The position numbers were made by a program, and so were the translations under genes. This document shows positions 7,506 through 63,133 of a stretch of 64,000 bases of DNA, in pieces. Origin of the DNA: Treponema sp. (lineage in GTDB: Bacteria > Spirochaetota > Spirochaetia > Treponematales > Treponemataceae); assembly GCA_017551545.1 (NCBI GenBank), contig JAFZLJ010000055.1, positions 35-64,034 of the forward strand. The letters are read 5' to 3'. Under the pieces are notes generated by a model. The model searched no databases. It was not told where the DNA came from and saw only the letters and a program-made list of their open reading frames with translations. How positions within the stretch are numbered: the first letter of the stretch is position 1; each line of letters begins with the position of its first letter.

Positions 7506-7609
7506 TGTCATTATCGGGCTTGCCCCGATAATCTCTTAGACAGAACGTCATTGCGAGCCAAGGCGAAACAATCCATGGATTGCCACGTCGCTTCGCTCCT
7601 CGCAATGAC
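7506..7609. repeat. REP cluster: family A (7506-7534) plus family B inverted doublet (7547-7574, 7577-7609)
   Basis: TGTCATT-ATCGG-GCTTGCC-CCGAT-AATCT; GTCATTGCGAG...CAATCC / GGATTGCCAC...CTCGCAATGAC followed by T8. Confidence 0.9.
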
Positions 7610-7615
7610 TTTTTT

Positions 7616-7644
7616 TTGCATTCAGATCTTTTTAATGATATAAT
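7616..7644 (+). promoter_or_regulatory. Sigma70-type promoter of the HD-GYP gene (likely leaderless)
   Basis: TTGCAT-N17-TATAAT with extended TGn, 7 nt before ATG 7652, no SD. Confidence 0.7.
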
Positions 7645-7651
7645 TAATAAT

Positions 7652-9361
7652 ATGTTACCTGGGCTTTATTTATCTGCATTTTTTGTTTCTCTTATAGAGC
7701 TTGTAATGTTCTATGAAAAGCGGCTTGGAAAAAACAGTCAGAACAGATTGATTTTGTTCATTGCCTGTTTTATTGCAAACTACGGTTGTGCTTTTCAATC
7801 TTTTGCCATAATTGTAAACGAAGCAATATGCGGAATGCAGATTTATTTTATTGGTAACACCCTTACTTTTGTTTTCCTTTTCTTTGTAATCGCAGATATT
7901 TGTACAGTAAAGCTTCATCGTTATGTTGAACGCTGTCTTTTTGGCGTTGCATTTATAATAATGGCTTTGGTAGCAGTTTGCGCCCATTATGATCTTTTCT
8001 TTAAAAAGGTAGAAATTGGTCATTTTGCCGGGGCAGCCTATGTAATTAAGGAATATGGAGTTTTATACTTCCTTTATCCTTTGTTTATTCTTGCTAACAC
8101 AATTGCCAGCATTTTTGTTATTCTTACTACCCGAAAAAAGGGCAAGAAGGTTTCTAAAAAAACAGTACTTTACCTTCTTGGAATACTTTTAATTACAGAC
8201 ATCACAACTATTATTTCTCTTATTACAAATTATCCGTTTGAAATTTATCCGTTTATAAATATCCTTCTTCTTGCAGCCCTTCTTGTTATTTTTAAGCATG
8301 CAGGAATGTATGATATGACCGAAAATCTTGTTAATGTTTTTTCACAGCGACTTGAATACGGTTATATTACTTTTGACAGAAAAAAACGTTTTCTTGGCTG
8401 TAACAGGTTTGCACAAAAGGTGCTTCCTCAATTAAAAGAAGCCGAAATTGATGAATATTTAAATACAAAAGACTGCCAGTATTATTCTGTTATTCTTGAC
8501 TGGATTGATGACTGGGTTGATGGCGACGAAAAAGAGCTTAAAATTACAAATGGCGATATTACAGCCATGTCCACAATCCGTTATATTCGAAACGATAACC
8601 GCAATATTGGATATCTTGTAGAAATGCGCGATGTTACTTCGCATCAGAAGTATCTGGAAAATCTGGAAGGTAACCGCCATTATCTTGAACTTGAAGTAGA
8701 AGAAAAATCAAATAAAATTGTTCATATTCAGGATTCGATTATTACCGGTATTGCAAGTATGGTCGAAAGCCGCGACAACTCTACCGGGGACCATATTCGC
8801 CGTACAAGTGAAGGGGTTCGCATATTTGTAGAACAGATTAAAAAACATAAGGATTATGATTATCTTGGAGAATCTTTCTGTATTAATGTTACAAAAGCTG
8901 CTCCTATGCACGACCTTGGAAAAATTGCCGTTCATGATGCTGTTTTGCAAAAGCCTGGAAAGTTTATTCCGGAAGAATATGAAGCAATGAAAATTCACAC
9001 TACAAAGGGTGCCGAAATAGTTGCCAATGTTCTTAGAGAAGTTGAAGACAAGCAGTTTAAGCAGATTTCTATAAACGTTGCTCATTATCATCATGAAAAA
9101 TGGGATGGAAGCGGTTATCCTAAAGGGTTAAAGGGTGAAGAAATTCCTATTGAAGCCCGTATAATGGCTTTTGCAGATGTTTTTGACGCACTTGTGACTA
9201 AGCGCTGCTACAAGGAGGCTTACGATTACGATACAGCCTTCGAAATTATGCAGAAAGAATTCGGCTCACACTTTGATCCTGATTTGGGAAGAATATTCTT
9301 AGAGTGTAAAGATGCACTTGTAGAAATGTACAGACTTGATGCACTGTTGAATAAGAACTAA
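7652..9361 (+). CDS. HD-GYP c-di-GMP phosphodiesterase with N-terminal 7TM sensor
   Basis: About 7 hydrophobic helices; ESRDNSTGDH, MHDLGKI, HHEKWDGSGYP, ADVFDAL..KRCYK. Start moved from the REP-derived 7580. Confidence 0.92.
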   Translation: MLPGLYLSAFFVSLIELVMFYEKRLGKNSQNRLILFIACFIANYGCAFQSFAIIVNEAICGMQIYFIGNTLTFVFLFFVIADICTVKLHRYVERCLFGVAFIIMALVAVCAHYDLFFKKVEIGHFAGAAYVIKEYGVLYFLYPLFILANTIASIFVILTTRKKGKKVSKKTVLYLLGILLITDITTIISLITNYPFEIYPFINILLLAALLVIFKHAGMYDMTENLVNVFSQRLEYGYITFDRKKRFLGCNRFAQKVLPQLKEAEIDEYLNTKDCQYYSVILDWIDDWVDGDEKELKITNGDITAMSTIRYIRNDNRNIGYLVEMRDVTSHQKYLENLEGNRHYLELEVEEKSNKIVHIQDSIITGIASMVESRDNSTGDHIRRTSEGVRIFVEQIKKHKDYDYLGESFCINVTKAAPMHDLGKIAVHDAVLQKPGKFIPEEYEAMKIHTTKGAEIVANVLREVEDKQFKQISINVAHYHHEKWDGSGYPKGLKGEEIPIEARIMAFADVFDALVTKRCYKEAYDYDTAFEIMQKEFGSHFDPDLGRIFLECKDALVEMYRLDALLNKN

Positions 9362-11094
9362 CGGCTAAGTTTTCTGTAAACTGTTCTTTTTGGAACGCCT
9401 GCATCCTCGCCGAATTCCTTCATCTTCCATTCAGCGTATTCACTCCAGTTTCCTTCAAAGAAGCGTACTTCAGAGTTATTTTCAAATGCAAGAATATGTG
9501 TACAGATTCTGTCTAAGAACCAGCGGTCGTGGCTTACTACAAGGGCACAGCCTGCAAAGTCTTCAAGGGCTTCTTCAAGCGCGCGTACTGTTTCTACGTC
9601 AAGGTCGTTTGTAGGTTCGTCGAATAAGAGTACGTTACCGCTTTCTTTAAGCATAAGTCCAAGATTAAGACGGTTGCGTTCACCACCAGAAAGTACGCTT
9701 ACCTTTTTATTCTGATCCGGTCCTGCAAAGTTGAACCAGCCGCAGTAAGCATGTGCATTTACTTCGCGTACGCCACCTTCAAGGGCGCGTCCCTTTTCGT
9801 CAACGGCACCAAGCTTTACAAGGTCTCCGCCGCCGCCAAGAGTTTCATATACAGTTTTGTTCATGTCGAGTGTAGAGCGCATCTGGTCTACATATACAAG
9901 CTTTACAGTTGAACCGATTTTAATGCTTCCGCTGTCTGGCTTTTCTCCGCCTTCCATGCCTGCTGCATCTACAATCATCTTAAAGAGTGTTGTTTTACCG
10001 GCACCGTTTGGTCCTACAATTCCAATAATTGCACCGGCAGGAATATGAACATTTAAGTTTTCGAATAAAAGTTTATCGTCGAATGATTTTGTAAGGTTTT
10101 CAATATCAATTACCTGACCGCCAAGACGTGGACCTGCAGGAATAGAAATCTGTGCATCCTTAAGCTGCTTTTTGCTTTCCTGTGCCATAAGCTCGTTGTA
10201 GCGGGTAATATGTTCCTTGTGCTTTGCCTGCCTTCCTTTTGCACCCATGTGAATCCATTCCAATTCGCGCTGAATTTCTTTCTGACGTTCAGATTCATGT
10301 TTACTTTCCATTGCAAGGCGCTGGTTCTTCTGTTCAAGCCAGCTTGAGTAGTTACCTTTGAACGGATATCCTTCTCCGCGGTCAAGCTCAAGAATCCAGC
10401 CGGCAACATCATCAAGGAAGTAGCGGTCGTGGGTAATGGCAATAACAGTACCAGGGTAATCGTGAAGATGCTTTTCTAGCCATGCAACTGTTTCTGCGTC
10501 CAAATGGTTTGTAGGTTCATCGAGCAACAAAATATCTGGCTGCTGAAGAAGAAGACGGCACAAAGCAACACGGCGGCGTTCACCTCCGGAAAGTACGTCT
10601 ACAACCTGTTCTGGTGGAGGGCAGCGCAAAGCTTCCATTGCAAGTTCAAGGTTATTATCAAGATTCCATGCATCGCAGGCATCAAGCTTTTCCTGAACTT
10701 CTGCCTGGCGGGCACAGAGCTTATCAAAATCTGCATCTGGGTCGCCGAAGGCTTCATTAATCTTGTCAAATTCTTCAAGAAGGTCTGTAATTGGTTTTAC
10801 ACCTTCTTTTACAACTTCCATAACAGTTTTTCCAGGTTCAAGGTAAGGCTCCTGTTCAAGGTAACCGATTGTGTAGCCTGGAGCAAGTGAAGTTTCACCT
10901 GTATAATCTTTATCAATTCCGGCAAGAATTTTGAAAAGTGAAGATTTTCCGGAACCGTTTGGACCGATTACACCAATTTTAGCTCCATAAAAATATGAAA
11001 TGCTTATATCTTTAAGTACAACTTTAGTTCCGTAAGCACGGCCAACGCGGTCCATTGTGTAGATAATTTTCTTGTCGTCGAATGTTTTTGCCAT
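9358..11094 (-). CDS. ettA: Energy-dependent translational throttle ABC-F protein EttA
   Basis: ISISYFYGAKIGVIGPNGSGKS, LSGGERRRVALCRLLL, ELDRG.G.PF.GNYSSWLEQK..RL, second NBD LSGGERNR, SHDRWFLDR. Confidence 0.93.
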   Translation of the reverse strand: MAKTFDDKKIIYTMDRVGRAYGTKVVLKDISISYFYGAKIGVIGPNGSGKSSLFKILAGIDKDYTGETSLAPGYTIGYLEQEPYLEPGKTVMEVVKEGVKPITDLLEEFDKINEAFGDPDADFDKLCARQAEVQEKLDACDAWNLDNNLELAMEALRCPPPEQVVDVLSGGERRRVALCRLLLQQPDILLLDEPTNHLDAETVAWLEKHLHDYPGTVIAITHDRYFLDDVAGWILELDRGEGYPFKGNYSSWLEQKNQRLAMESKHESERQKEIQRELEWIHMGAKGRQAKHKEHITRYNELMAQESKKQLKDAQISIPAGPRLGGQVIDIENLTKSFDDKLLFENLNVHIPAGAIIGIVGPNGAGKTTLFKMIVDAAGMEGGEKPDSGSIKIGSTVKLVYVDQMRSTLDMNKTVYETLGGGGDLVKLGAVDEKGRALEGGVREVNAHAYCGWFNFAGPDQNKKVSVLSGGERNRLNLGLMLKESGNVLLFDEPTNDLDVETVRALEEALEDFAGCALVVSHDRWFLDRICTHILAFENNSEVRFFEGNWSEYAEWKMKEFGEDAGVPKRTVYRKLSR

Positions 11095-11103
11095 AGTTTT
11101 TCC

Positions 11104-12978
11104 TTATTCGATTATTGTTCCTGCAGGGTATCTTGTAAATTCTGCAGTTGGTTCTGTAAGTATATCAGGTTCACTTGTCGTTTCTGTTGTTGTTTCAGGT
11201 TCAGCAGAGCCTGTTTCTGTTTCTGCAGGCTTTGGTGCCGGAGCAGGCTTTGGAACCGGTGTATATGACATGCGGATATTTTCGTTTTCAGACTTGTGTC
11301 GTGACTTGAGGAGCAATGTCTGTGAGTCAGACTTATATACATAACCCGAAGAATTGTATGTTTCAAAGCGTGGGTCTGTACGGAATGCCATATCATAAAT
11401 GAAGATTTGTTCAAATGCCGGAATGCCTTTAAGTATTACATAATGTGTGTATTCCAGAGGGAAGTTGATTGTAAGAACAAGAGCTCCGTCATCAGCCTTA
11501 GCATATTTTATGTCGCCAGAACAAGTCCATGCCCACATAACATCCTTTCCGGAGCCGTGTATAAGCTGAATATGTGGATAGAATGTGTTGTCGTATGCCA
11601 GAAGCGGATAAAGTGTTGTGAGTGTGCGTAAGTCGAATGATGTACTTTCGCCAAGGTATGAATTAACAATTACACGACCTGCTCTTGTATATGTATCATT
11701 ATTAACAGCAAGACCGAATCTCATAAGTGAAATACCGGCTTCTGCTGCCTGGACTACAGAAAGGAAGGTGTCGTTTTCGGAAATTGTAAGAACTTCGTTT
11801 TCAAATGTGCACGAATCTGTAATATGCTGTACACAATCTCCCATAACAGGTTCAAGAATAGAAGCATATTCAGCGTTGAGTTTTCTAAGTTCTACATAAG
11901 TTCGCATGATTCCCGAAACCTGAGCAATTGTTGCTCTTGAAATGTCAGAAGTAGCGGCGTTTCTAAGAACTGCAACAGCTTCTGATTTTTCAGGGTAGAT
12001 ACACAAGCGTGCTGCAAGATTATTTACAGTAAATATATCGAGTGTACCTGAAGAAGCGGCCTTTCTGATTGAATCTGACGACTCTTTTACTGCAGTTTCA
12101 AGCAAAGTGTTCATGTTTGCAAGGTTATTAAGGAACGGTGCAGAAAGATATGTTCTTGAATTACTCTTTTTGTAATCCTGTGGAATATCATCTATTGCAG
12201 TCTTGTAGTTTCCGTTTATAGCCATTGCAGAAATATATGCAACTACAGCCTGTTCTGTATAGCTGTTATCATTTAATGAAGTCTTAAAGCTGCTTATTAA
12301 ATTAGCTGTAATTGAAGAAACTGTATTGTCGTAGGCTTGTTTTTCTGCGCTTGCAAGAGAAGTAAGTACATCAAGAGAGAATTTCTTTGTTTCATCATAA
12401 ACTGTGTAATGTGCAATGTTATCTGCATAAGTTAAATGAAGGTAATTTTCTGCAATTTCAGATGCGCTTATGCTCCAGTTCTGTTTTTTGCCTTCAAGTA
12501 CAATTCTGTTTGAATCTTCTTTAAGAATCTTGAAGTTATAACCAATATTGAATGGTATATACAAATCTGATATATTCTTAGGAACATCGGCGTAAATGGT
12601 AAGCGGTGAATTTGCTTCATTTTGAGCAAGCATAATTACAATACTTACATTTTCTGTAAAATGGAATGTATACTGAAGGTCGTTTTCTTCATAAGAAATA
12701 AGCTGAAGATTTTTTGCAACCTGTTCATCTTTCTGAATTATCTTAATGCTGTCCTGATCATTTGTGTGGAGTGTTATTCCGTTGTATGAAATTTCCAGCT
12801 TGTTCTGCAGAGCTTCTGAATTTTCTGCTTCTTCGGTCCTTGCCATGCTAACCTGAAGGTTTCCGATTTTTTTGAGAATGGAAGAATCTGTTCTAAATTG
12901 AAGAATAAAAATGCCGATGATAATAACGATATCGACAATCAGAAGTCCTATGGCTTTTCTTATAACACGCATATTCAT
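11104..12978 (-). CDS. Membrane-anchored hypothetical protein with P/T/E-rich tail
   Basis: 624-aa ORF with one N-terminal TM helix; FRTDPRFETYNSSGY motif near the C-terminus; function not recognised. Confidence 0.8.
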   Translation of the reverse strand: MNMRVIRKAIGLLIVDIVIIIGIFILQFRTDSSILKKIGNLQVSMARTEEAENSEALQNKLEISYNGITLHTNDQDSIKIIQKDEQVAKNLQLISYEENDLQYTFHFTENVSIVIMLAQNEANSPLTIYADVPKNISDLYIPFNIGYNFKILKEDSNRIVLEGKKQNWSISASEIAENYLHLTYADNIAHYTVYDETKKFSLDVLTSLASAEKQAYDNTVSSITANLISSFKTSLNDNSYTEQAVVAYISAMAINGNYKTAIDDIPQDYKKSNSRTYLSAPFLNNLANMNTLLETAVKESSDSIRKAASSGTLDIFTVNNLAARLCIYPEKSEAVAVLRNAATSDISRATIAQVSGIMRTYVELRKLNAEYASILEPVMGDCVQHITDSCTFENEVLTISENDTFLSVVQAAEAGISLMRFGLAVNNDTYTRAGRVIVNSYLGESTSFDLRTLTTLYPLLAYDNTFYPHIQLIHGSGKDVMWAWTCSGDIKYAKADDGALVLTINFPLEYTHYVILKGIPAFEQIFIYDMAFRTDPRFETYNSSGYVYKSDSQTLLLKSRHKSENENIRMSYTPVPKPAPAPKPAETETGSAEPETTTETTSEPDILTEPTAEFTRYPAGTIIE

Positions 12979-13035
12979 GGTGCTTATAGTTTAACCAAAA
13001 AATAAGGGACTTTCAACTATATATATAAGGAATAA

Positions 13036-15680: not shown

Positions 15681-15777
15681 ATTCCCGTGTCAAGCACGGG
15701 AATGACAGAGATGTGGTCCCTGAGCCTGTCGAAGGGCCCCTTGTTTATTGTCATTGTCGGGCTTGACCCGACAATCT
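15679..15777. repeat. Mosaic REP cluster A(-)/C(+)/A(+)
   Basis: 15679-15707 family A, 15715-15737 GGTCCCTGAGCCTGTCGAAGGGC, 15749-15777 family A. Confidence 0.9.
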
Positions 15778-15874
15778 TTTCTTAGAAAACTCTTATCATA
15801 ACAAGTCGTTATATAACAATCCATATATAGATTTTTTCCCAAAATTTGCGAAAATATGTATATATGGATTGATT

Positions 15875-17338: not shown

Positions 17339-17339
17339 T

Positions 17340-18479: not shown

Positions 18480-18490
18480 CGAGGCGCGTC

Positions 18491-19168: not shown

Positions 19169-19170
19169 TT

Positions 19171-20361: not shown

Positions 20362-20424
20362 AGATTGTCGGGTCAAGCCCGACAATGACACACTTTGTCA
20401 TTCCCCGGCTTGACCGGGGAATCT
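20362..20424. repeat. REP family A doublet between convergent genes
   Basis: 20362-20390 (GTCGG stem, minus) and 20396-20424 (CCCCG/CGGGG stem, plus). Confidence 0.9.
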
Positions 20425-36628: not shown

Positions 36629-37315
36629 TTATTTTTTGAGATTTATCTTTCTATTGCCTATCCAAAGCCCGAGGGAAATTAACCAGGTGATGAGGAGCAT
36701 GGCTGGGACTGCTATAAGGGCGTTGGAAATGTTGCCGCCCAGGAAGCCGTACCAGTCGTAGTCTTTTAAAGGGTTGCCGGAATTCAGGTGGGCTATTATG
36801 TTTATGGTGTAGAAAACGGCGTAGATTGCCATGGTGATTATGCCGAAGAGAGAATCTTTTAAGGAAATGTCATCAGTGTCTGGTTCAAAAAATATAAAGG
36901 TGATGATTGAAAGCAGTGGGACTGTCAGGTGGAAGAAAAAGTTGTTGTCTATGTACAGGATTGCCCAGTTTTCGCCGAATTGTGGGATTAAGAAGAAGGC
37001 TGTTACAAGCATTGTAAGGGTGAGACCTGTTGCAGCGGCAAGTCTTAAAAGGTGAAGCAGCTTTGGAAGGCGTGTGATTTTACCTTTGGCAAGGGCAATT
37101 TCAAAGAAAATATAAACAAGCGCAAGCAATCCTCCAAAAACATTCGAATCAACTGTGTAATACTTAAATGCAGAAAGGTTAGCAGCTGTAAAAGCACGTA
37201 CTTCTTCCGAACGGCTCATAATATTAAAGTTAAAAATCATGCTGATTGTTGCAAATGATACCAGCACGAAAATGAGGGTGTTTAGAATAATGGAAACTAT
37301 TGCTTTCTTTTTCAT
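36629..37315 (-). CDS. Integral membrane protein, Pr6Pr / FAR-17a-AIG1-like
   Basis: About 6 TM helices; YYTVDSN, H..VP, YGFL motif pattern. Confidence 0.65.
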   Translation of the reverse strand: MKKKAIVSIILNTLIFVLVSFATISMIFNFNIMSRSEEVRAFTAANLSAFKYYTVDSNVFGGLLALVYIFFEIALAKGKITRLPKLLHLLRLAAATGLTLTMLVTAFFLIPQFGENWAILYIDNNFFFHLTVPLLSIITFIFFEPDTDDISLKDSLFGIITMAIYAVFYTINIIAHLNSGNPLKDYDWYGFLGGNISNALIAVPAMLLITWLISLGLWIGNRKINLKK

Positions 37316-37360: not shown

Positions 37361-37446
37361 GTCATTGCGAGGAGCGCAGCGACGTGGCAATCCAGATATT
37401 AGAATGCATTCTTGTAACTGGATTGCCACGCTACGCTCGCAATGAC
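37361..37446. repeat. 86-bp REP family B doublet (REPIN-like) with 26-bp spacer
   Basis: GTCATTGCGAGGAGCGCAGCGACGTGGCAATCC-N26-GGATTGCCACGCTACGCTCGCAATGAC. Confidence 0.92.
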
Positions 37447-37452: not shown

Positions 37453-37504
37453 TATAGGGAGTTTCCCCTATAACCTTGAAAATCTACGTTTTCTCTATTA
37501 TAAT
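37453..37504 (+). promoter_or_regulatory. GH94 promoter with upstream palindrome
   Basis: TATAGGG-AGTTTC-CCCTATA (37453-37472), then TTGAAA-N17-TATAAT (37476-37504). Confidence 0.65.
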
Positions 37505-37544
37505 GAACGAACTACATTTCAATTATTTTATAGGAGAACCGTTC

Positions 37545-40022
37545 ATGAAGTTCGGACACTTTGATGACGCCAACCGCGAGTATGTTATTGAAACACCTCG
37601 CACACCTTATCCTTGGATTAACTATCTTGGAACACAGGGATTTTTCTCGTTAATTTCTAATACTTCAGGAGGATACAGCTTCTACAAAGATGCACGCCTT
37701 CGTCGTATTACACGTTACCGCTACAACAACGTACCTATCGACATGGGCGGACGCTATTTTTACATCAACGACAACGGTACAATCTGGAATCCGGGCTGGT
37801 CTCCTGTAAAGACAGAACTTGATTCTTACGAATGCCGCCATGGTATGGGCTATACAATCATCACCGGTAAAAAGAATAACCTTAAGGCACAGGTTACCTT
37901 CTTTGTTCCACAGGACTACGATGGAGAAGTTCAGCAGGTAGTTTTGACAAACGAAGGTTCAAGCGACAAGACATTTAAGTTCTGGTCATTTGCTGAATGG
38001 TGTCTTTGGGATGCTCAGGATGACTGTACAAACTTCCAGAGAAACTTTTCTACAGGCCGCGTAGAAATCAAAGATTCTGTAATCTATCATAAAACTGAAT
38101 ACCGCGACCGCCGCAATCATTATGCATTCTATTCTGTAAACGACAAGATTGACGGTTATGATACAGACCGCGATACATTCATTGGTCTTTACAACGGCTT
38201 CCACAATCCTCAGGCTGTTCTTGACGGAAAGTGCGGCAATTCTCTTGCAGACGGATGGTCTCCTATTGCATCACACTACAAGGAAATTACACTTAAAGCA
38301 GGCGAATCAAAGACTTTAGTATTCGTACTTGGTTATGTAGAAATGCCTGTTGAAAAGAAATTCGAAGCAGACGGTAAGACAATCAACAAAGAAAAAGCTC
38401 TTGCTATGATCGAAAAATACAACACTCCGGAAAAGTTTGCTGCCGGTATGAAAGAGCTTCGTGCTTACTGGGATAAACTTTTGGGCATTCTCAACGTAAA
38501 TACACCGGAAGACAAAGTAAACCGCATGGTAAACATCTGGAACCAGTATCAGTGTATGGTTACATTCAACCTTTCACGCTCGGCTTCTTACTTTGAGTCA
38601 GGAATTGGTCGTGGTATGGGCTTCCGTGATTCTAACCAGGATATTCTTGGATTTGTTCACCAGATTCCTGACCGTGCCCGCGAACGACTTATTGATATTG
38701 CATCAACACAGCTTGAAGACGGAGGATGTTACCACCAGTACCAGCCGCTTACAAAGAAGGGTAACGCAGACATTGGTGGCGACTTCTCTGATGACCCACT
38801 TTGGATGATTCTTTCTGTTTCTGCATACATCAAGGAAACAGGCGACTGGTCAATCCTGGACGCAAAGGTTCCTTATGACAACGATGAGTCTAAGGCTAAG
38901 TCAATGCTCGATCACCTTACAGTAAGCTTCTACCACATTGTAAATAATCTTGGACCACACGGACTTCCACTTGCAATGCGCGCAGACTGGAACGACTGTA
39001 TCAACCTTTCATGCTTCTCTGACACACCGGGTGAAAGCTTCCAGACATATACAAACCCTAAGTTCAAGGCAGAAGGCGGCTACTCAAAGGTTGCAGAATC
39101 TGTATTTGTTGCCGCTTTGTTCACCTACGTTGGACCAAACTTCGTAGGAATCCTCAATCACTTGGGCAAGAAAGACGAAGCAGCTAAGGCTCAGGCAGAA
39201 ATCGATAAGATGAAGAAGGTTATGATGGATTCTGCATGGGACGGAAACTGGTTCATGCGTGCATACGATGCAAACGGCCAGAAAATGGGTTCTAAGGAAT
39301 GCGAAGAAGGACAGATCTTCATCGAACCACAGGGCTTTGCAATCATGTCTGACATTGACAAGGATGCAACAAAGAAGACTCTTGCCGCAATTGATGAACG
39401 CCTGAACACAAAGCACGGTCTTGTTTTGAATAACCCTGCATTCTCTAAGTACTACATCCAGTACGGTGAGATTTCTACATATCCGGGCGGATACAAGGAA
39501 AATGCCGGTATCTTTACACACAACAACGCATGGATTATCTGTGCTGCAGCTTATGCCGGTGAAGGTGATCAGGCATTCAAGTACTACTCAGAAATTGCAC
39601 CTGCCTATACAGAAGAAACTTCTGACCTTCACAAGACAGAACCTTATGTATACGGCCAGATGATCGGTGGTAAGGACGCAGGTTCGGACATAGGTCAGAC
39701 AGGCAAGAACTTTGGTCAGGGTAAAAACTCTTGGCTTACAGGTACAGCTGCCTGGAACATGGTTGCAATCAGCCAGTACATCTTGGGCATTCAGCCGGAC
39801 TTTGACGGACTTAAGGTAGATCCTTCTATTCCGGCTAACTGGGATGGCTTTACAGCAACACGTCTTTTCCGCGGTGCTAAATACAACATCACAATCAAAA
39901 ACCCAAGCCACGTATGCAAGGGCGTAAAGAGTTTGGTTGTAGACGGCCAGGCTGTTGAAGGTTGTGTAGTGCCTTTTGTTGAAGGTAAGAAAGAAGTTAA
40001 TGTAGAGATTACATTAGGATAA
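37545..40022 (+). CDS. GH94 cellobiose phosphorylase
   Basis: [70 protein letters not shown]; SD AGGAG. Confidence 0.93.
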
Positions 40023-40027
40023 TTGCT

Positions 40028-40151
40028 GGGGCCCCTGAGCTTGTCGAAGGGCCCTATAAACACACGTCATTGCGAGCGAAGCGTGGCAATCCAGTTATTA
40101 AAATGCATTCTAATAACTGGATTGCCACGTCGTTTCACTCCTCGCAATGAC
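40028..40151. repeat. REP family C (40028-40054) plus an 86-bp family B doublet (40066-40151)
   Basis: GGGGCCCCTGAGCTTGTCGAAGGGCCC; the doublet is a near reverse complement of 37361-37446, including the spacer. Confidence 0.92.
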
Positions 40152-40160
40152 GTTATTTTT

Positions 40161-41129
40161 TTACCATTCCATTCCATCCATAGTCTTAATAGAACCATCT
40201 GGATTAAATGTCAATTCGCGGAACTTAACGTTGCGCTTCTGGTTTACGCCGTTTGAGCGTTCGCAGTCATGGTAGAACAAGTACCACTTTCCGTTGAACT
40301 CGAGGATTGAGTGGTGTGTTGTCCATCCAAGAACAGGAGTAAGAATCTTTCCGCCGTAGGTGTATGGACCGTAAACATTCTTGCTGGTTGCCCAGTTCAA
40401 AAAGTGGGTTGTTCCTGTTGAATATGTAAAGTAGTAGGTGTCGCCTTTCTTAAAGAGCCATGGGTCTTCAAAGTAGCGGCGGTCTTCGTCTTTACCAAGT
40501 AAAGGCTTTCCGTTTTCGTCTACAATTACAAGGTCGCGTGGAGCTTCTGCAATTTCAAGCATGTTATCTTTCATCAAAGCGATTTTTGGTGTGCATGCTT
40601 CTTCTTCGCGTGGTTCCTTGTTTTCGGCACCCCAGGTGTTGTTGCGGTACTGATCAAGCTGTCCGCCCCAAAGTCCACCGAATGTAAGGTAGTATTTTCC
40701 GTCTGTGTCTGGGAAGCAGCATGGGTCAATACTATATGTTCCCTGGATATAGTCATCTTCCGGCTTGAATGGGCCTTCAGGTTTGTCGCCAACTGCTACA
40801 CCAACTCTGAACATACCGTTTTTGTCGCGTGCAGGGAAATAGAAATAGTATTTTCCGTTTCTTTCAACGCAGTCTGGAGCCCAAAGCTGTTTGCTTGCCC
40901 ATTTTACATCATCAATTGTGAAAACACATCCACAATCACGTGGATAAGTTTCTGTATCTTTCATCTCATAAACGTGATAGTCTTTCATATCATACTGATC
41001 ACCGTTATCGTTGCTTTCTACATCAATATCCTCGTCATGAGAAGGGTAGATATAGATTTTTCCATTAAAAACGTGTGCAGAAGGATCAGCTGTATAAAGG
41101 TCGTTTACCAAAGGTCTTCTTTCGATCAT
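40161..41129 (-). CDS. GH43 beta-xylosidase/alpha-arabinofuranosidase (GH43_1-like), cytoplasmic
   Basis: YTADPSAHVF.GKIYIYPSHD, LWAPD, SIDP, FGG.WGGQL, RYFE.PW, GWTTHHSI. Confidence 0.93.
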   Translation of the reverse strand: MIERRPLVNDLYTADPSAHVFNGKIYIYPSHDEDIDVESNDNGDQYDMKDYHVYEMKDTETYPRDCGCVFTIDDVKWASKQLWAPDCVERNGKYYFYFPARDKNGMFRVGVAVGDKPEGPFKPEDDYIQGTYSIDPCCFPDTDGKYYLTFGGLWGGQLDQYRNNTWGAENKEPREEEACTPKIALMKDNMLEIAEAPRDLVIVDENGKPLLGKDEDRRYFEDPWLFKKGDTYYFTYSTGTTHFLNWATSKNVYGPYTYGGKILTPVLGWTTHHSILEFNGKWYLFYHDCERSNGVNQKRNVKFRELTFNPDGSIKTMDGMEW

Positions 41130-41202: not shown

Positions 41203-41272
41203 GGATTGCCGCGTCGCTGCGCTCCTCGCAATGACGAAAGGCCACGTCATTGCGAGCGAAGCGTGGCAATCT
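41203..41272. repeat. REP family B pair (GTCAT ends facing each other)
   Basis: 41203-41235 minus copy, 41246-41272 plus copy. Confidence 0.9.
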
Positions 41273-48332: not shown

Positions 48333-48416
48333 GTCATTGCGAGCGCAGCGTGGCAATCCACATATTAAAAGAAATTCTCAAATGTGGATTGCCACGCCCT
48401 TCGGGCTCGCAATGAC
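48333..48416. repeat. REP family B doublet with 26-bp spacer
   Basis: 48333-48359 and 48386-48416; spacer ACATATTAAAAGAAATTCTCAAATGT. Confidence 0.92.
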
Positions 48417-52025: not shown

Positions 52026-52096
52026 TTTGAAGACTGATTGTATTTTTTTTCAAATCTGATTGTTTATAATTGTTTTTTACTATAATATATACTCCT

Positions 52097-53722: not shown

Positions 53723-53726
53723 AAAG

Positions 53727-53841
53727 AGATTGTCGGGTCAAGCCCGACAATGACACAGACAGTCAAGACTGACAATGACACAGACAGTCAAGACTGACAA
53801 TGACACAAGTCTTGTCATTCCCGGGCTTGACCCGGGAATCT
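53727..53841. repeat. REP family A (-), two 25-bp REP-derived tandem units, REP family A (+)
   Basis: 53727-53755; (CAGACAGTCAAGACTGACAATGACA)x2 at 53756-53805; 53813-53841. Confidence 0.92.
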
Positions 53842-53860
53842 CATATTAGAAGAGGTTATC

Positions 53861-55681: not shown

Positions 55682-55746
55682 ACTGTAAATTAAATAATTG
55701 TTCTTCGTCTTTAGGTCTGCCGATAATAGAAAAGGAGACCCTTTTT

Positions 55747-57783: not shown

Positions 57784-58560
57784 AGAAACAATATACGGCA
57801 GAGAAAGCAAAACAGAAGAAGGAATGCCTGGTATAAAGTTTTGTATGTAAACAGCTCCAAAATCAACGGCACAGAAAATAAGAGCATAAAGTGCTATAAG
57901 CGGGAGCTTTCTTTTTCCCATAAAAACTGCTGCCAGTGCAAGCCATCCTTTCCCGCTTGCAAGATTCGGAACAAAAGAAGAAATCCTTAAAACAAGAAAA
58001 CTTCCGGCAAAGCTTGCAAAAAATCCGCTTATTCCCCAGGATGCAATTCTATAAATGGCAGGGGAAACTCCGCGCACAAGAAGAACATCAGGATTACTTC
58101 CGGTGATTCTAAAATATATTCCGCCCTTTGCTTTTTTAATATAAACTACAGCAGCCGTAATAAGTGCAGCTGTAATTAATGTTGTCGAAATATTTACCGG
58201 TACCAGATGATAAACAAAGCCTGGTGAAGAAAGAACTCCTCTTGTTCCAAAACAAAGCCACGAAAAAAGCGATGTAAACGAACTAAAAAGAAGATTTACT
58301 GCAATGGCTGCAATAAAAGTATTTGCACGTGCTTTTTCAATAATCAGTGCAATAACAAGGCATAGCAAAACTGAAATTATGGCAGACAAAGTCATACCTG
58401 CTGCTACAGACCCTGTTGCGACTGTAAATGCATAAGTTAAAAATCCGGAAAATGATATGAGCCCATCCATAAAAAGTGCAAGACAACCGGCATATTCACT
58501 GAATAAAGCGCCTGTTGCAGCAAGAAGAAGCGGACATGAAAAACCTAAGAAGTTAAGCAT
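57760..58560 (-). CDS. Nucleoside/simple-sugar ABC permease
   Basis: [13 protein letters not shown]......[14 protein letters not shown]; SD AGGAGG. Confidence 0.85.
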
Positions 58561-59443
58561 TTTCATTCCTCCTTTTATGAGGCGCATACAAAAGCGAAAT
58601 TGAAAAAAGTATTATTGCCTGAATGAGCGTGTTTACATCAAAATCGAGGTTTGAATAAAGTGCAAATTTTCCTGAGTAAGTCATAAGCGACGAAATTAAA
58701 ATAGAAACAGGAATTACAAGGGCAGGTCTTGTTCTTGCAATCATTGCTACAGAAAGAGCGTTCCAGCCTAAGCCTGCATAAAAGCTTGTGTGGCATGTAA
58801 AATATATTCCACAGATTGCAGTGGCGCCGGCAAGTGAATGAAGAGAACCGCAGGCAGCTGCAGCAGTAAATGTTATTTTGTTGCAGTTGAATCCGGAATA
58901 AAAAGAAAACTGAGGACTGATGCCGTAAATCTGAGTTTGTTTACCAAAACGTGTTTTTATAAAGAAAAGTTCGAGCAAAATACATAATGCAATTGCTCCA
59001 AAAATGGTGCAGTTCAAAGGGGAAGGCTTTAATATGCTTGCAAAACGATATTGCTGTACAAGATACGGAGTTGCAAGAAGGTTTCCTGTTTTAGTTCTGA
59101 ATGGACCTGAAATAAGGCCGTCAATAAGCGGAATGATTGCAGAAGAGGTTATAAAGGTTGTAAGAAGAAAATCGGCATGCTTGAGCTTATAAAGCAGTTC
59201 ACAGAAAATAAGAATTAGCGCACCTGCTGCAGCCGAAATTATAAACGCGAATGAAACTGCAAAAAAGGCCGGAATATGAACTTTTGCAAACAAGTCGAGC
59301 AGCACGGCACATAAAAAGCCTCCAAGATAAATAAGGCCTTCTCCAGCCAGATTTATGCGTCCTGTTTTAAGTGAAAAAGCAGCTCCTGAACCTGCGAGCA
59401 TATAAATTGCAGAAAGGCTTAGCATAAGTCCAAAGTAGTACAT
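58553..59443 (-). CDS. Nucleoside/simple-sugar ABC permease
   Basis: G.INL.GEG.IY.GG, KT.FG, G.GW....VA..A..P. Confidence 0.82.
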   Translation of the reverse strand: MYYFGLMLSLSAIYMLAGSGAAFSLKTGRINLAGEGLIYLGGFLCAVLLDLFAKVHIPAFFAVSFAFIISAAAGALILIFCELLYKLKHADFLLTTFITSSAIIPLIDGLISGPFRTKTGNLLATPYLVQQYRFASILKPSPLNCTIFGAIALCILLELFFIKTRFGKQTQIYGISPQFSFYSGFNCNKITFTAAAACGSLHSLAGATAICGIYFTCHTSFYAGLGWNALSVAMIARTRPALVIPVSILISSLMTYSGKFALYSNLDFDVNTLIQAIILFSISLLYAPHKRRNENA

Positions 59444-60651
59444 TACACAGCCTCCAGGTTTCCGTCTTTTAATCTGTATTCTACATCGCAATATTCAGAA
59501 GGCCAGGCACCATAAGAAAGGACAAGAACATAGGCTCCGTTTTGAGCAGCTTTTTGTATTCGTTCACAAGTTTTCTGGCAGGTGTTTACATCAAGTCCCT
59601 GAAGCGGATTACATAAAATTAACAGTTCCGGATTTCCGTAAAGCTCTCGTTCAAACATAAGCTTTTGAAGCATGCCTCCGGAAAGACTTGAACATTTTTC
59701 CTGTGGTGTTATGTCTACTCCGCTTGAGTTTATCATTTGAAGGGCAGCAGCAGGTTTCTGGCTTTCGGGAATATCAAGTGAACTTGTAAGCATCTGTTCA
59801 ATTGTAAGGTTTGGAGAAGAACCGGTGAACTTTCTGTCTGTAGGGATAAGTGCTGTTTTAAAAGCGAACTCATGATGTGAGCGCATATTTATAAGTGATT
59901 TTTCAAGTTTATCAAGGCCATCTTCTGCAAGACCTTTTATAAGTGTAATTCTACCGTTGTTGCTCTGTGATATGGGGTCACCAAATGACCCGTGATCTCC
60001 GAGTTTGTCGAAGGGGTTCCCTGCAGGCACAATCTTCCCATCTTTAATATAATCAACTGTGTCGCAGTATTTTTCTGCTTCATCGTAATTATGGGTGATG
60101 ATAATGATGTTCATTCCTTCACCCGCAAGAAGCCTGAGCTTTTCGAAAAGAAAAATCCTCTGATTGTCATCAAGCAGGGCAGAAGGTTCATCAAGAATAA
60201 GAATCTTTGGCTTTTTTATAAGGGCACTTGTGAGCGCAATAAAAAATCGTGTATCGGCTCCGTGTTTTAATACAAGTGAATTAAGGTTTACTTCGGGCAG
60301 CCATTTTTCTGCTTCAGGTTTTAGCAAAAGCTTTTGTTCTTTGTTCAGCCCGAGTAAAAGATTTTCTTTAACAGTAATGTAATCTGCAAGCATAGGCCGC
60401 TGATGAACATAACAGATTCCGTTTTGAATTGCATCTTTTGGGGTACGAAAAACAACAGGCTTCCCGTCTAAAAGAATTGTTCCGCTGTCTGGTGAAAGTT
60501 CGCCGCAGATAATATTTGCAGCAGTTGATTTTCCGGCTCCGTTTTCTCCTAAAAGTGCATGAAGCTGTCCTTCATTAAAACAAAGACTTAATTTATTGAG
60601 AACAGTTTTTTTAGAAAAATGCAGACAAATCTGTCTAAGTTCAAGCGTCAT
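59443..60651 (-). CDS. CUT2-type ABC ATP-binding protein, shortened and degenerate
   Basis: HALLGENGAGKST, LILDEPS..L, IITH, second-half IP.DR and LSGG..QK. Confidence 0.85.
   Translation of the reverse strand: MTLELRQICLHFSKKTVLNKLSLCFNEGQLHALLGENGAGKSTAANIICGELSPDSGTILLDGKPVVFRTPKDAIQNGICYVHQRPMLADYITVKENLLLGLNKEQKLLLKPEAEKWLPEVNLNSLVLKHGADTRFFIALTSALIKKPKILILDEPSALLDDNQRIFLFEKLRLLAGEGMNIIIITHNYDEAEKYCDTVDYIKDGKIVPAGNPFDKLGDHGSFGDPISQSNNGRITLIKGLAEDGLDKLEKSLINMRSHHEFAFKTALIPTDRKFTGSSPNLTIEQMLTSSLDIPESQKPAAALQMINSSGVDITPQEKCSSLSGGMLQKLMFERELYGNPELLILCNPLQGLDVNTCQKTCERIQKAAQNGAYVLVLSYGAWPSEYCDVEYRLKDGNLEAV
59994..60015. repeat. Degenerate REP family C copy in frame in the ATPase linker
   Basis: GATCTCCGAGTTTGTCGAAGGG; the minus strand reads PFDKLGD. 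Confidence 0.65.
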
Positions 60652-60661
60652 ATCATTTTGT

Positions 60662-60725
60662 GGATTGCCACGGCCTTCGGCCTCGCAATGACGTTATTGC
60701 GAGGAGCGAAGCGACGTGGCAATCC
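60662..60725. repeat. REP family B pair
   Basis: 60662-60692 minus copy directly abutting the 60693-60725 plus copy. Confidence 0.9.
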
Positions 60726-60731
60726 AGTTTT

Positions 60732-61733
60732 TTACTGAATAATAATATCGCCGGCTTTAATAGAATCTACAAGCTCTGCCATTTTTGTACGAATACCGGC
60801 AGGGACTGTAGAAATATAAAGAGGATCGTCCTGAACAAAATCAACAAAGCCTTCTTTTATACCAAAGGTTTTTGCTGTTCCCCAATCTGTTTTGCCGTTC
60901 AGGAAGTCGGTTGTCATAATAAATGAAAGCTCCTGCTGAAGCATTACGGTAGATGAAATAATGTTGCCCGGTGCTTTGTCAAAGCCGTTGTTATCGAACC
61001 AGGTAATATAAAAGTTGTTGTTTACTGCAGAATTAATAACTCCCTGTGAAGCTCCTCCGCAGATTGGAAGAATTACATCAACACCTTCGCTGTAAAGACT
61101 GTCGGCAAGAACTGCGCCTTTATTTGCATCGTACCAGTTTCCAACAACACGGAAAGCTACAGTAGAAGCAGAATTGGCATCGCGTGCACCCTTTTCAAAA
61201 TAAGGCCAGATGATATTGTTCATAACAGGATATTCCTGTGCTGCAATAAGACCAAGCTTGTGCGAAGAAGACATAAGACCACCAATGTAGCCTGTAAGAT
61301 ATGCCTGTTCATACTGATTGTAGCAGACAGTACAGATATTTTTGTTACCTCTGCATTCTGCGTCCATAAGAATGAACTTCTGGTCTGGGAACTGTTCAAT
61401 TATTGGAAGAACAATTTCCGGAAGGGAAGGGTTAGATGAAATAATAACATCGTACTTCTGTTCGGCAGCAAGGGCAGAAATTTTAGCAGGCCATTCAGAC
61501 TGATTTGTACCGGCTTCAAGAACATAAAGTGTTGTTTTCTTGTCCATTTCTTTGCCGCTGTTGAATTCATCTACAGCAAGAGAAACGCCGTCACGAAGCA
61601 TTGCATAAACAGGACTGTCTGCGCAAATACCTGGAATAAAAACTGCAATAGACTTTTTCTTTGTCGTTGCAGATTTACACGAAATTACAATAAATGATAA
61701 AAGAATTGAGAGAATAATAAATGATTTTTTCAT
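60732..61733 (-). CDS. BMP-family (PnrA/TmpC-like) ABC substrate-binding lipoprotein
   Basis: Lipobox VISC; YDVII, FPDQKF..MD, EQAYL.GY, G.W.D...G..LA..LY..GVDVI. Confidence 0.88.
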   Translation of the reverse strand: MKKSFIILSILLSFIVISCKSATTKKKSIAVFIPGICADSPVYAMLRDGVSLAVDEFNSGKEMDKKTTLYVLEAGTNQSEWPAKISALAAEQKYDVIISSNPSLPEIVLPIIEQFPDQKFILMDAECRGNKNICTVCYNQYEQAYLTGYIGGLMSSSHKLGLIAAQEYPVMNNIIWPYFEKGARDANSASTVAFRVVGNWYDANKGAVLADSLYSEGVDVILPICGGASQGVINSAVNNNFYITWFDNNGFDKAPGNIISSTVMLQQELSFIMTTDFLNGKTDWGTAKTFGIKEGFVDFVQDDPLYISTVPAGIRTKMAELVDSIKAGDIIIQ

Positions 61734-61742
61734 AGTAAGAGA

Positions 61743-61771
61743 ATAATAGTTTTATATAAAACTATTGTCAA
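61743..61771 (-). promoter_or_regulatory. BMP operon promoter with a 22-bp palindromic operator
   Basis: Minus-strand TTGACA-N17-TATTAT; perfect palindrome AATAGTTTTATATAAAACTATT at 61745-61766. Confidence 0.85.
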
Positions 61772-61774
61772 CCC

Positions 61775-62206
61775 CTAATTGAAGTTGTTTTTGATTCTTT
61801 CTAAAAATGCACAGAACTCTTCTTTTTCTTTGCTGGTAAAGCCTTTATAAAAGGTTTCCTGTAGTTCCTGAGAAAGTTTCTGGGTCATCTGGTTGTATTC
61901 TGTGCCTTTTGAAGTTAAACTCAGCTTTTTGTTTCGTTTGTCCAGCGGGTCAATTGTTGTAGTTACAAGACCTGCTGCTTCGAGCTTACGTACAAGAACT
62001 GTAGTTGTAGATTTATCTCTGTTTATCCTGGCAGAAAGTTCTTTCATTGTAATTTCCGGATTCACACTAAGCTGATAAAGAATGTATCCGTGAGAGGAAG
62101 CAAAATCATCAAAGCCGTTTTCTGAAAGACGCTTTTTTATAAAATCGGCTGTAAGAGTGTGAATCTGTGAAACCTTTGCAATGCTGGTATCTTTTTCTTC
62201 TGCCAT
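61775..62206 (-). CDS. MarR-family transcriptional regulator
   Basis: ITMKELS......KST.T.LV.KLE..GLV....DP.DKR...L.LT.KG. Confidence 0.93.
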   Translation of the reverse strand: MAEEKDTSIAKVSQIHTLTADFIKKRLSENGFDDFASSHGYILYQLSVNPEITMKELSARINRDKSTTTVLVRKLEAAGLVTTTIDPLDKRNKKLSLTSKGTEYNQMTQKLSQELQETFYKGFTSKEKEEFCAFLERIKNNFN

Positions 62207-62222
62207 TTAAAGGTTTCCACTG

Positions 62223-63047
62223 TTATTTTTCTTCCTTCCAAGGGAAAAGGAATGAACGAAGTTTTCTTGGTCCAAGTGCTTCGCGATCATCATAAATCAG
62301 TTCTTCCCAAGGAATCTTTTTGCGGTCTTTGGCAGTAGTAAGCTCCGGATGCTCTTCAAGATAATCATATTTGTACATACGAAGACGGAAGGCATTGTGC
62401 TTAGAAATAGAAAGCCCTGTTATTGAAGGGAAGAATCCAATTGGCAGAATAGAAAGTGCTGTCAAAAGAAGATGATATAATCCCATGATAATAGAAAAGC
62501 CTGTATTATCCATGAAAATAATAAAGCATTTTTTAAGGCATTTTCCAAACTTGTTATGGAATGTGCTGCGGATTGGAACAAACCATTGAAGTGATAATGC
62601 AATAATAATATCAATCCAGAAGAGCAGCGCTCCTACAAAAAGACCCATTATTGTCTGCTGCTGAAGGATATAGAATGTAAGGCTGTAGACAGAAATAAAA
62701 ACAATCACAATTGTCAGGAGTGAAAAAAGGAATGCATCTAAAAGAACGCCTGGAATGCGCTTGAAGAAATCAAGAAGGTGAATGCCTTCAAAGTTAGCAA
62801 TTTTCTGAGAAAGTTCACCAAAGGCAAAATCTATGATATTAAAAATAAATATACCAATAAAAAGAATGCCTGTCTGAATCAGATAGAAGGCCATATCAGT
62901 AGTGTTTTCATTAAGATGTTGTGTAACAAAAGAGCTTAAAAGAATTACACCAACCATGCTTATAAGAAACAAAACATTGATTACAACAACAGTAAACAGG
63001 TTATCCCACCCGTCACAAAAGTTTTTCTTAAATAAAAATCCGTACAT
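62223..63047 (-). CDS. Hypothetical multi-TM membrane protein
   Basis: About 5-6 TM helices; KKNFCDGWDN and IPW.ELI..D.E..GPR..RSF.FPWK ends; function unrecognised. Confidence 0.75.
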   Translation of the reverse strand: MYGFLFKKNFCDGWDNLFTVVVINVLFLISMVGVILLSSFVTQHLNENTTDMAFYLIQTGILFIGIFIFNIIDFAFGELSQKIANFEGIHLLDFFKRIPGVLLDAFLFSLLTIVIVFISVYSLTFYILQQQTIMGLFVGALLFWIDIIIALSLQWFVPIRSTFHNKFGKCLKKCFIIFMDNTGFSIIMGLYHLLLTALSILPIGFFPSITGLSISKHNAFRLRMYKYDYLEEHPELTTAKDRKKIPWEELIYDDREALGPRKLRSFLFPWKEEK

Positions 63048-63061
63048 TAGCGCGGTCCTAT

Positions 63062-63133
63062 AAAAAAAAAGTCATTGCGAGCCGGAGGCGTGGCAATCCA
63101 GTCTGTAGATTGCTTCGCTTCGCTCGCAATGAC
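63062..63133. repeat. REP family B doublet (63071-63099, 63107-63133) with an adjacent A9 run; likely minus-strand terminator
   Basis: Hairpin followed by T9 on the minus strand, downstream of 63148..63807. Confidence 0.85.

Follow-up and report, generated by a model that had tools for sequence, protein, structure and literature searches.

The window analysed here, a stretch of 64,000 nucleotides from a gut Treponema genome, carries a dispersed repeat, family B, whose copies vary in sequence and keep a mini-hairpin with a G-N-A (GNA) tri-loop. This raises the question of what such repeats are selected for, i.e. whether they act mainly as RNA or as folds in single-stranded DNA (ssDNA) read by a protein, and which protein this would be. 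The initial annotation had favoured strand-specific ssDNA structures recognised by a RAYT/HUH or GIY-YIG-type nuclease encoded elsewhere. Drawing on the structure and covariation of the repeats, a repeat-gene-repeat layout, its recurrence across phyla and empty sites in sister species, we consider family B very probably to comprise Ssn-related, CGTC-tagged hairpin motifs of the SRM/NTS type, serving as ssDNA binding and cleavage sites of a cognate GIY-YIG nuclease whose gene lies on contig C78 of this genome.

Family B units form inverted pairs

A search for GTYATTGCGAG allowing at most one mismatch returned exactly 14 sites in the window, the same sites as listed in the initial annotation, while shuffled windows gave a mean of 1.84 sites and none of 100 shuffles reached 14. 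The count of 14 copies stands, with the correction that these are half-units forming seven inverted pairs. Units share the architecture (C)GTCATTGCGA-[mini-hairpin]-GNN-GCAATC(C), most window copies reading CGTC-ATTGC...GCAAT-CCA and some being followed by T-runs. The unit folds into a 5-bp stem (ATTGC/GCAAT), an internal loop, an inner stem of 2-5 bp and a 3-nt loop. All inner hairpins described initially, including the degenerate copy at 7547, were confirmed by reading the sequence.

Tails face each other in five pairs. The pair at 7547-7609 joins the degenerate plus-strand unit (7547-7573, inner segment GCCAAGGC) across a 4-nt gap to a long-form minus-strand unit (7578-7609, GC-GAA-GC). Two pairs are 86 bp in length with a 28-nt spacer. 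That at 37361-37446, located in the gap between the divergent ORFs 36629-37315 (minus) and 37476-40022 (plus), consists of a long plus unit (37361-37392, GC-GCA-GC) and a short minus unit (37421-37446, GC-GTA-GC). The other, at 40066-40151, is flanked by convergent ORFs and marks a synteny break relative to five sister genomes; here a short plus unit (40066-40091, GC-GAA-GC) is followed by the spacer CAGTTATTAAAATGCATTCTAATAACTG and a long minus unit (40120-40151, GT-GAA-AC). The pair at 48333-48416 (84 bp) also has a 28-nt spacer, set between a short plus unit (48333-48358, GC-GCA-GC) and a short minus unit with a 4-bp inner stem (48387-48416, GCCC-GAA-GGGC), and at 63071-63133 a 9-nt gap separates a plus unit (63071-63098, GCC-GGA-GGC) from a minus unit (63108-63133, GC-GAA-GC with a GAA 3' flank). 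Heads face each other in the remaining two pairs: at 41204-41271 a long minus unit (41204-41235, GC-GCA-GC) and a short plus unit (41246-41271, GC-GAA-GC) are 10 nt apart, and at 60663-60724 a minus unit (60663-60692, GGCC-GAA-GGCC) abuts a long-form plus unit (60693-60724, head GTTATTGCGA, GC-GAA-GC). The stretch of the window is also present in animal-gut metagenomes; contigs of four sequencing runs showed only pile-ups, contig breaks and joints from other copies at the repeats.

The GNA loop is conserved genome-wide over covarying stems

The host genome, a gut Treponema MAG (3.01 Mb, 157 contigs, 89.5% complete), contains about 290-370 family B units (371 by regular expression, 324 parsed, 275 with a fully Watson-Crick-paired inner stem); as units are defined by the head GTCATTGCGA and the tail GCAATC, the expression itself selects for these two elements. 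A C precedes the head in 271 of the 371 units, and paired units nearly always comprise one short and one long arm. A looser expression, returning 1374 mostly false units, was discarded. Among the 275 fully paired units, loop position 1 is G in 255, A in 17 and T in three, and position 3 is A in 272, C in two and T in one, while position 2 varies freely (A 143, C 69, T 54, G 9). Positions 1 and 3 are hence far from free, their conservation being close to that of the unit's head and tail, and GNA lies on the CGTC-tagged strand in 255 of 275 units. The inner stems covary as initially claimed: 22 of 24 4-bp stems are paired, in five stem types (shuffle mean 6.1), as are seven of seven 5-bp stems, in four types (shuffle mean 1.9), and GNA is kept in 66 of 76 units with a stem other than GC/GC.

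With 214 of 275 units sharing the GC/GC stem and GAA being the commonest loop, the constancy of GNA might simply be inherited from a small number of master copies, the loop itself being unselected. We regard this as very unlikely, since the middle loop base is free between fixed neighbours, at least 13 stem types, length changes included, retain GNA, and the bias toward GNA is also found in unrelated phyla. In families A and C of this genome, the loop is constantly CTTGA while the stems differ. Hirao and co-workers reportedly described d(GCGNAGC) DNA mini-hairpins closed by a sheared G.A pair. In family B this heptamer, GC-GNA-GC, forms the commonest inner core and, unlike the isolated mini-hairpin, is embedded in a larger hairpin; folding programs do not model the GNA fold. 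Nearest-neighbour folding, with models having no term for sheared G.A loops, did not favour the fold of the single unit (z about -0.3) and preferred for pairs a rod-like arm-to-arm hairpin, which is very stable as RNA (z about -11).

These RNA rods, the T-runs following some copies and an enrichment of repeat clusters in convergent gaps (26% compared to 13% of all intergenic gaps) would suit repeats acting mainly as RNA, i.e. as terminators or 3'-end stabilisers, with any nuclease association being secondary. However, the share of clusters in divergent gaps is near background (15% versus 17%), the pair at 37361-37446 being an example, and the orientation of true singletons is not significantly linked to gene direction (17 to 8, p = 0.11) or to GC skew, so that orientation does not simply follow transcription. 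The loops are GNA and not GNRA or UNCG, RNA-type tetraloops being nearly absent among the units (GCAA, twice), and no Rfam family matches family B; a literature search for the exact motif returned unrelated primer matches only. Together with the failure of the Neisseria enzyme SsnA to bind RNA (PMC11893778), this makes a primarily RNA-based role quite unlikely and supports the initial view of the repeats as more than RNA terminators.

A GIY-YIG gene is framed by family B units

Contig C78 of the genome carries a single-domain GIY-YIG ORF of 93 amino acids (L121:1902-2183; PF01541 match at C78:4904-5125, E 1.1e-15). The gene is preceded by an AGGAGG ribosome-binding site and framed by inverted family B units, 20 bp upstream on the plus strand (L121:1852-1883) and 17 bp downstream on the minus strand (L121:2200-2231), with three further units upstream. 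It lies at the dyad of a pair of the 86-bp type: its start ATG falls on that of the dyad core GAATGCATTC, and both inner flanks match the spacer-half profile, as do about 0.01-0.03% of random positions. Homologues have 93-100 amino acids with PF01541 as sole domain, the closest being 70-99% identical, and Y6, Y17 and E64 are invariant in a 16-sequence alignment of the family. Among solved structures, the UPF0213 proteins 1ZG2 and 1YWL are the closest. A profile built from this alignment matches genes accompanied by canonical NTS-like repeats in Micavibrio, Sphingobium and Novosphingobium (E 1e-39 to 1e-31). The genome encodes three nuclease paralogues (on C78, C144 and C96), which may each be specific for one of family B, families A/C and the GGGNCCCTGAGC repeat.

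The GIY-YIG half of the initially proposed alternative is supported by the C78 gene, while its RAYT half is not, the genome having yielded no Y1/RAYT gene. Family B resembles in several respects the classical REP/REPIN elements, which are mobilised by an HUH Y1 transposase (RAYT). REPINs and BIMEs of E. coli and Pseudomonas are likewise inverted doublets with a spacer and two arm types, as in the Y and Z REPs of E. coli, use an ssDNA hairpin as substrate, and the enzyme gene can be framed by its own repeats ("REPtron"). Their enzyme, in contrast, has the HUH-Y1 fold and their tag is GTAG, whereas family B carries CGTC and frames a GIY-YIG gene. PF01797 had no match in the 89.5%-complete genome, the same search being positive in six control genomes, and mobilisation by a RAYT is accordingly extremely unlikely.

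The repeat-gene-repeat layout recurs in other taxa

The layout is also found around homologues in loci of Eubacteriales, Melainabacteria and Kangiella. Metagenomic homologue loci are flanked by repeats on both sides in 46 of 78 cases and on one side in 24 more, the chance expectation being about 0.07 per side, and repeats of one class tend to group together on the nuclease tree (14 changes of class compared to a shuffle mean of 25.2 and a shuffle minimum of 20). Repeats with the family B head and tail are found in Alpha-, Beta- and Gammaproteobacteria, Firmicutes, Chloroflexi, Fibrobacter, Treponema, Melainabacteria and Patescibacteria, as well as in further groups. Among 318 distinct inner sequences from 188 loci, all outside this genus save a few other Treponema MAGs, GNA accounts for 92 of 187 triloops, with about 1 in 16 expected by chance. 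A restriction of GNA to very short stems was rejected, since in other taxa its share of triloops changes little across stem lengths of 2-7 bp. Close homologues are also accompanied by other inner segments, such as CGACGAAAGGAGCGCG in Kangiella and an 8-bp stem with CTCCGA in a Eubacteriales MAG, and many metagenomic copies have 4- to 8-nt loops.

Empty sites and distribution within the genus

The whole repeat-gene-repeat block of about 670 bp is missing from the syntenic site of the sister genome G020, and five sister genomes have the homologous intergenic region without the pair 41204-41271; the intergenic DNA of the sister species is too diverged to define exact insertion boundaries or a target duplication. 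The empty sites support the view of repeat-ssn-repeat blocks and gene-less pairs as insertions, and it is along these lines that we infer the copies to have spread. Unit counts across the genus are patchy (269, 153, 89, 55, 20, 13, 13, 1, and 0 in the remainder), and the co-occurrence of units and nuclease is imperfect. The genomes G011 and G023 have 13-20 units, yet no nuclease homologue was found in them, and in G048, with 153 units, the profile finds a single intact homologue, lacking any GTCAT repeat in the surrounding 220 bp, and a further copy with a stop codon.

Discussion

Family B is very probably a further example of the Ssn/SRM system described in 2025 (PMC11893778). SsnA of Neisseria meningitidis binds a CGTC-tagged hairpin as ssDNA only and on one strand, neither as RNA nor as double-stranded DNA, and cuts just upstream of it; mutating Tyr6, Tyr17 or Glu64 abolishes cleavage, and mobility of the elements was a hypothesis (PMC11893778). 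Both systems (for Ssn NTS/SRM: cd10448; Chenal et al., Nat Commun 2025) have a single-domain GIY-YIG protein of about 93 amino acids with Y6, Y17 and E64, its gene placed between inverted hairpin repeats, repeats beginning with (C)GTC and then AT with a C directly 3' of the palindrome, copies numbering in the hundreds and lying mostly between genes, and multiple nuclease-repeat pairs per genome. They differ in that the NTS has a continuous 8-bp stem whereas in family B a stem of 5 bp leads through an internal loop to a nested GNA mini-hairpin, in the nearly invariable pairing of a short with a long arm, and in the host, a gut Treponema. Family B also lies outside the published SRM search pattern HGTCWYN(0-2)YYVSBRHN(0-5)WNVSBRGN(0-2)RNCYNB (PMC11893778): none of 290 units fits this pattern, which is a search heuristic and not a definition, and its 64 matches in the genome are mostly family C (GTCATTCCCG[GT]GC). 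The misfit to this pattern, the short-plus-long pairing and the position of the gene at an 86-bp-type dyad are new here. The CGTC-tagged REPs of Di Nocera et al. 2013 (PMC3733652) share with family B the tag, the A-T stem opening, the CCA tail, inverted dimers, a distribution over several phyla and the absence of a RAYT, while having continuous 8-9-bp stems and 4-5-nt loops, which family B lacks. No dedicated enzyme was found for them at the time (PMC3733652), and this missing enzyme is supplied by the Ssn work together with the present data.

The framing of the C78 gene, the recurrence across phyla and the Ssn biochemistry lend indirect support to the initial proposal of a strand-specific ssDNA structure read by a protein, and we infer that the C78 protein binds and cuts the units as ssDNA. 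By analogy with SsnA and the NTS, specificity on the tagged strand, for recognition as well as for cleavage, would reside in the GTC directly before the palindrome, the ATTGC/GCAAT stem and the 3' C, with the nuclease cutting a few bases upstream of the tagged unit. The variable inner segment would sit where the enzyme accepts any sequence and would be selected for folding only. A GC mini-stem with a G-N-A cap, presumably the most compact stable DNA hairpin and possibly extended in the long form by a tandem G.A module, would clamp the short AT-rich 5-bp stem and thereby allow the site to form in ssDNA.

The nuclease probably does not read the GNA loop itself. The conservation of positions 1 and 3 at about the level of head and tail, and the constant CTTGA loop of families A and C despite their differing stems, would fit a nuclease reading the loop directly, by sequence or shape. 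For SsnA, however, loop identity is dispensable and both deletion and extension of the loop are tolerated (PMC11893778), and the repeats of close homologues have other inner segments; direct reading of GNA is therefore unlikely, and for the same reasons the mini-hairpin would more likely be a folding clamp than a recognition site. Since families A and C keep CTTGA over different stems, loops may nevertheless matter more than the Neisseria data suggest.

Tentatively, family B may represent a distinct structural subclass of Ssn sites, with the 86-bp short-plus-long pairs being ORF-less derivatives of a repeat-ssn-repeat element. The recognition stem would then be reduced to 5 bp and the site would depend on a nested ssDNA-specific fold, composed of the GNA-capped GC mini-stem and, in the long form, G.T and tandem G.A modules. 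A derivation of the pairs from the element is suggested because the gene lies at the dyad of such a pair, with coincident ATG and flanks matching the spacer halves. If true, the element and the pairs would be the autonomous and non-autonomous partners of a transposon system driven by a GIY-YIG ssDNA nuclease.

As a summary, a repeat type that is among the most widespread escapes the published SRM pattern, and the development of Ssn enzymes as ssDNA tools would have in family B a compact substrate with a tunable loop. About 300 unexplained repeats of a gut Treponema can be assigned to a known enzyme-site system, and the likely enzyme gene is named. Because the GNA loops keep phase with the CGTC tag and almost no RNA-type tetraloops occur, our data provide comparative support for Ssn sites being selected as DNA folds and not as RNA folds.

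Family-B units keep a GNA triloop over covarying stems

The genome (3.01 Mb, 157 contigs, 89.5% complete) belongs to a Treponema, since its PtsI is 90-92% identical to proteins of Treponema MAGs and 80% identical to that of T. bryantii, and DNA of the window is found in animal-gut metagenomes. A search of the window, which spans C60:35-64034, for GTYATTGCGAG with at most one mismatch yields 14 matches; shuffled sequences average 1.84, and 0 of 100 reached 14. The initial annotation's count of 14 copies is thereby reproduced as a number, but not as independent copies, the 14 sites being half-units of seven inverted pairs: three of the 84-86 bp class with a 28-nt spacer (37361-37446, 40066-40151 and 48333-48416), two with tails facing across a short gap (7547-7609 and 63071-63133) and two with heads facing (41204-41271 and 60663-60724). 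The unit layout is (C)GTC-ATTGC-GA-[inner hairpin]-G(T/A/C)(G/A)-GCAAT-C(CA), and site-by-site reading confirmed all inner hairpins originally given for the window copies.

Genome-wide, a head-plus-tail regular expression retrieved 371 units, 324 of which could be parsed and 275 of which have a fully Watson-Crick inner stem. Within these 275, loop position 1 is G in 255 (A 17, T 3) and position 3 is A in 272 (C 2, T 1), position 2 being A in 143, C in 69, T in 54 and G in 9; the GNA rule proposed from the window therefore holds across the genome, positions 1 and 3 not varying freely. Units exist in a short form, GA-[stem GNA stem]-GTG, and a long form, GA-GGA-[GC GNA GC]-GAC-GTG, with inner stems including GC, GCC/GGC, GCCC/GGGC, GCAC/GTGC, GGGC/GCCC, GGCC, GCCAC/GTGGC and others. 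The suggested covariation of stems under a constant loop was likewise borne out: 4-bp stems are fully paired in 22/24 units (five stem types; shuffle mean 6.1), 5-bp stems in 7/7 (four stem types; shuffle mean 1.9), and GNA is retained in 66 of the 76 units with a stem other than GC/GC. RNA-type tetraloops are nearly missing.

The recognition stem of family B is AT-rich and has only 5 bp, and a GC mini-stem with a G-N-A cap makes an unusually stable, very small DNA hairpin. GNA lies on the tagged strand, the complement of which would read T-N-C, and a continuous helix can be drawn for the long form (G.T, A.G, G-C, G.A, A.G, then GC/GC with GNA). In the other CGTC-type families of the genome (~210 copies) the stem runs uninterrupted over at least 7 bp, typically 8-9 bp (ATTGTCG 100, ATTCCCG 59, ATTGCCG 16, ATTATCG 10). 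Inner segments of many other kinds are found in repeats beside nuclease homologues elsewhere; even so, 92 of the 187 triloops at loci of other organisms are GNA. The GNA pattern fits selection for folding in single-stranded DNA rather than for protein contact with the loop. About 180 of the ~210 other CGTC-type copies have a CTTGA loop; if loop identity is irrelevant, there is no explanation for a loop that stays constant while the stems covary.

Arrangement of the repeats

The 290 confident units fall into 199 clusters: 58 tails-facing pairs, mostly with a 27-30-nt spacer, 32 heads-facing pairs, one tandem same-strand pair and 108 apparent singletons. Half of these singletons have a decayed partner close by. 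Seventy of 90 pairs combine a long with a short arm, 20 two short arms and none two long arms. For the 28-nt spacer, the consensus is CAnnTAtaAgAATGCATTcTaaTannTG and the mean pairwise identity 0.67. Identical inner arms occur in none of the 90 pairs of this genome, so that arms cannot pair mutually across the inner segment, whereas each can self-fold.

Some copies may act at RNA 3' ends, as pairs form stable RNA rods and 26% of clusters lie between convergent genes versus 13% of all intergenic gaps. This role leaves unexplained the phasing of GNA with the tag, the copies in divergent gaps (15% of clusters, 17% of all gaps) and the nuclease association, which upholds the view that the elements are not merely RNA terminators. 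Orientation in family B does not simply track transcription, true singletons showing no significant tracking of gene direction (17 to 8, p = 0.11); nor does their orientation follow GC skew in this genome. About 22 clusters fall inside long ORFs of a crude gene caller (C101:33173, C86:98549, C88:26166, C67:36587 and others), some being start-codon artefacts and a few resembling true in-frame insertions.

A GIY-YIG gene between inverted family-B units

A RAYT/HUH or GIY-YIG enzyme encoded elsewhere had been predicted, and the GIY-YIG alternative is the one that stands: PF01797 (RAYT/Y1) has no match in the 89.5% complete genome, and PF01541 (GIY-YIG) retrieves three small genes. The gene on contig C78 (C78:4901-5182), preceded by an AGGAGG ribosome-binding site and encoding 93 aa, lies between a short-form unit on the plus strand, 20 bp upstream, and a long-form unit on the minus strand, 17 bp downstream, with three more units farther upstream. 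The locus has the layout of an 86-bp pair with the gene replacing the spacer centre: both inner flanks fit the spacer-half profile of 86-bp pairs (0.01-0.03% of random positions are as good), and the ATG of the gene coincides with that of the dyad core GAATGCATTC. Among solved structures, the UPF0213 proteins 1ZG2 and 1YWL come closest.

Family-A repeats lie on either side of the second paralogue (C144:36053-36319), at L216:1406-1440 and 1857-1885 in its extracted locus. These repeats read GTCATTGTCGGG-CTTGA-CCCGACAATCTC, and a window copy at 7507-7535 adjoins the family-B pair at 7547. The third, more distant paralogue (C96:18402-18653; 40% identity) has around it, at L217:1455-1482 and 1783-1810, an inverted pair of a non-CGTC repeat, GGGGTCCCTGAGCCTGTCGAAGGGCC, of which a window copy at 40028-40054 adjoins the pair at 40066. 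Gene and repeat may here form a nuclease-repeat pair that the published motif does not cover.

CGTC-tagged REPs were defined by Di Nocera et al. 2013 (PMC3733652), who found no dedicated enzyme. SsnA of Neisseria meningitidis, a 94-aa single-domain GIY-YIG protein (cd10448), binds its target CGTCATTCCCGCGMAVGCGGGAATCYRG as ssDNA only and on that strand only, binds neither dsDNA nor RNA, and cleaves a few bases upstream of the repeat; binding hinges on the C after the palindrome and cleavage on the three bases before it, the loop can be changed, removed or extended, and cleavage is lost in the mutants Y6A, Y17A and E64A (Chenal et al. 2025, PMC11893778). Ssn homologues have the motif nearby in 71% and on both sides in 42% of cases, and the same authors noted an IS-like architecture and proposed domestication (PMC11893778). 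The C78 protein shares Y6, Y17 and E64, which are invariant in the alignment with its homologues; the invariant parts of family B (GTC, stem, 3' C) are those that matter for SsnA, and its variable mini-hairpin sits where SsnA is tolerant. Because enzyme residues and invariant site parts match the Ssn/SRM system, the family-B repeat-nuclease system is one already known, and by analogy with SsnA biochemistry the proposed reading of a strand-specific ssDNA structure by a GIY-YIG nuclease appears supported. Family B fits the published SRM search pattern in 0/290 units, which is a limit of that pattern and not grounds to exclude family B.

Signs of mobility, and recurrence elsewhere

At the syntenic site of the sister genome G020 the whole ~670-bp repeat-gene-repeat block of C78 is missing, and five sister genomes lack the pair at 41204-41271 in their homologous gap. 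Only the 5' arm of a pair is in the recognised orientation on any one strand, so simple IS200-like excision is not implied by the Neisseria data. Within 40022-40161, synteny with 5/5 sister genomes ends exactly at the pair 40066-40151, the genes to its left and right lying there on different contigs or in separate places; the repeat was either the site of a rearrangement or a point through which the assembly was joined. Within the genus, this genome has 269 family-B units and others have 153, 89, 55, 20, 13, 13 and 1, with 0 in the other genomes searched; co-occurrence with the nuclease gene is imperfect.

Family-B head and tail occur together in many phyla. In a Eubacteriales MAG, a Melainabacteria MAG and Kangiella japonica, homologues of the C78 protein with 49-57% identity lie between family-B-type units whose heads point outward; around the homologues of Micavibrio, Sphingobium and Novosphingobium the repeats are of the classical GTCATTCCCGCGCAGGCGGGAATCC type. 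Both flanks could be read at 78 metagenome loci, of which 46 carry a unit in the expected orientation within 160 bp on both sides and 24 on one side only (chance ~0.07 per side). On a quickly built tree of 109 homologues, the class of flanking repeat switches 14 times (shuffles: mean 25.2, minimum 20), which backs the repeat-nuclease association, short of proof, related sequences sharing labels. Homologues sharing 70-99% identity with the C78 protein are mostly on contigs below 1.5 kb, fitting assemblies that break at flanking repeats; one at 83% is named Treponema and one at 73% Gastranaerophilales, a hint that horizontal spread has been recent. In the sister species G021, which has no family-B units, the GIY-YIG homologue (L212:1339-1900) lies inside an array of GTCATTCCGGG-CTTGA-CCCGGAATCTC repeats, and the genus therefore holds nuclease-repeat pairs that differ between species.
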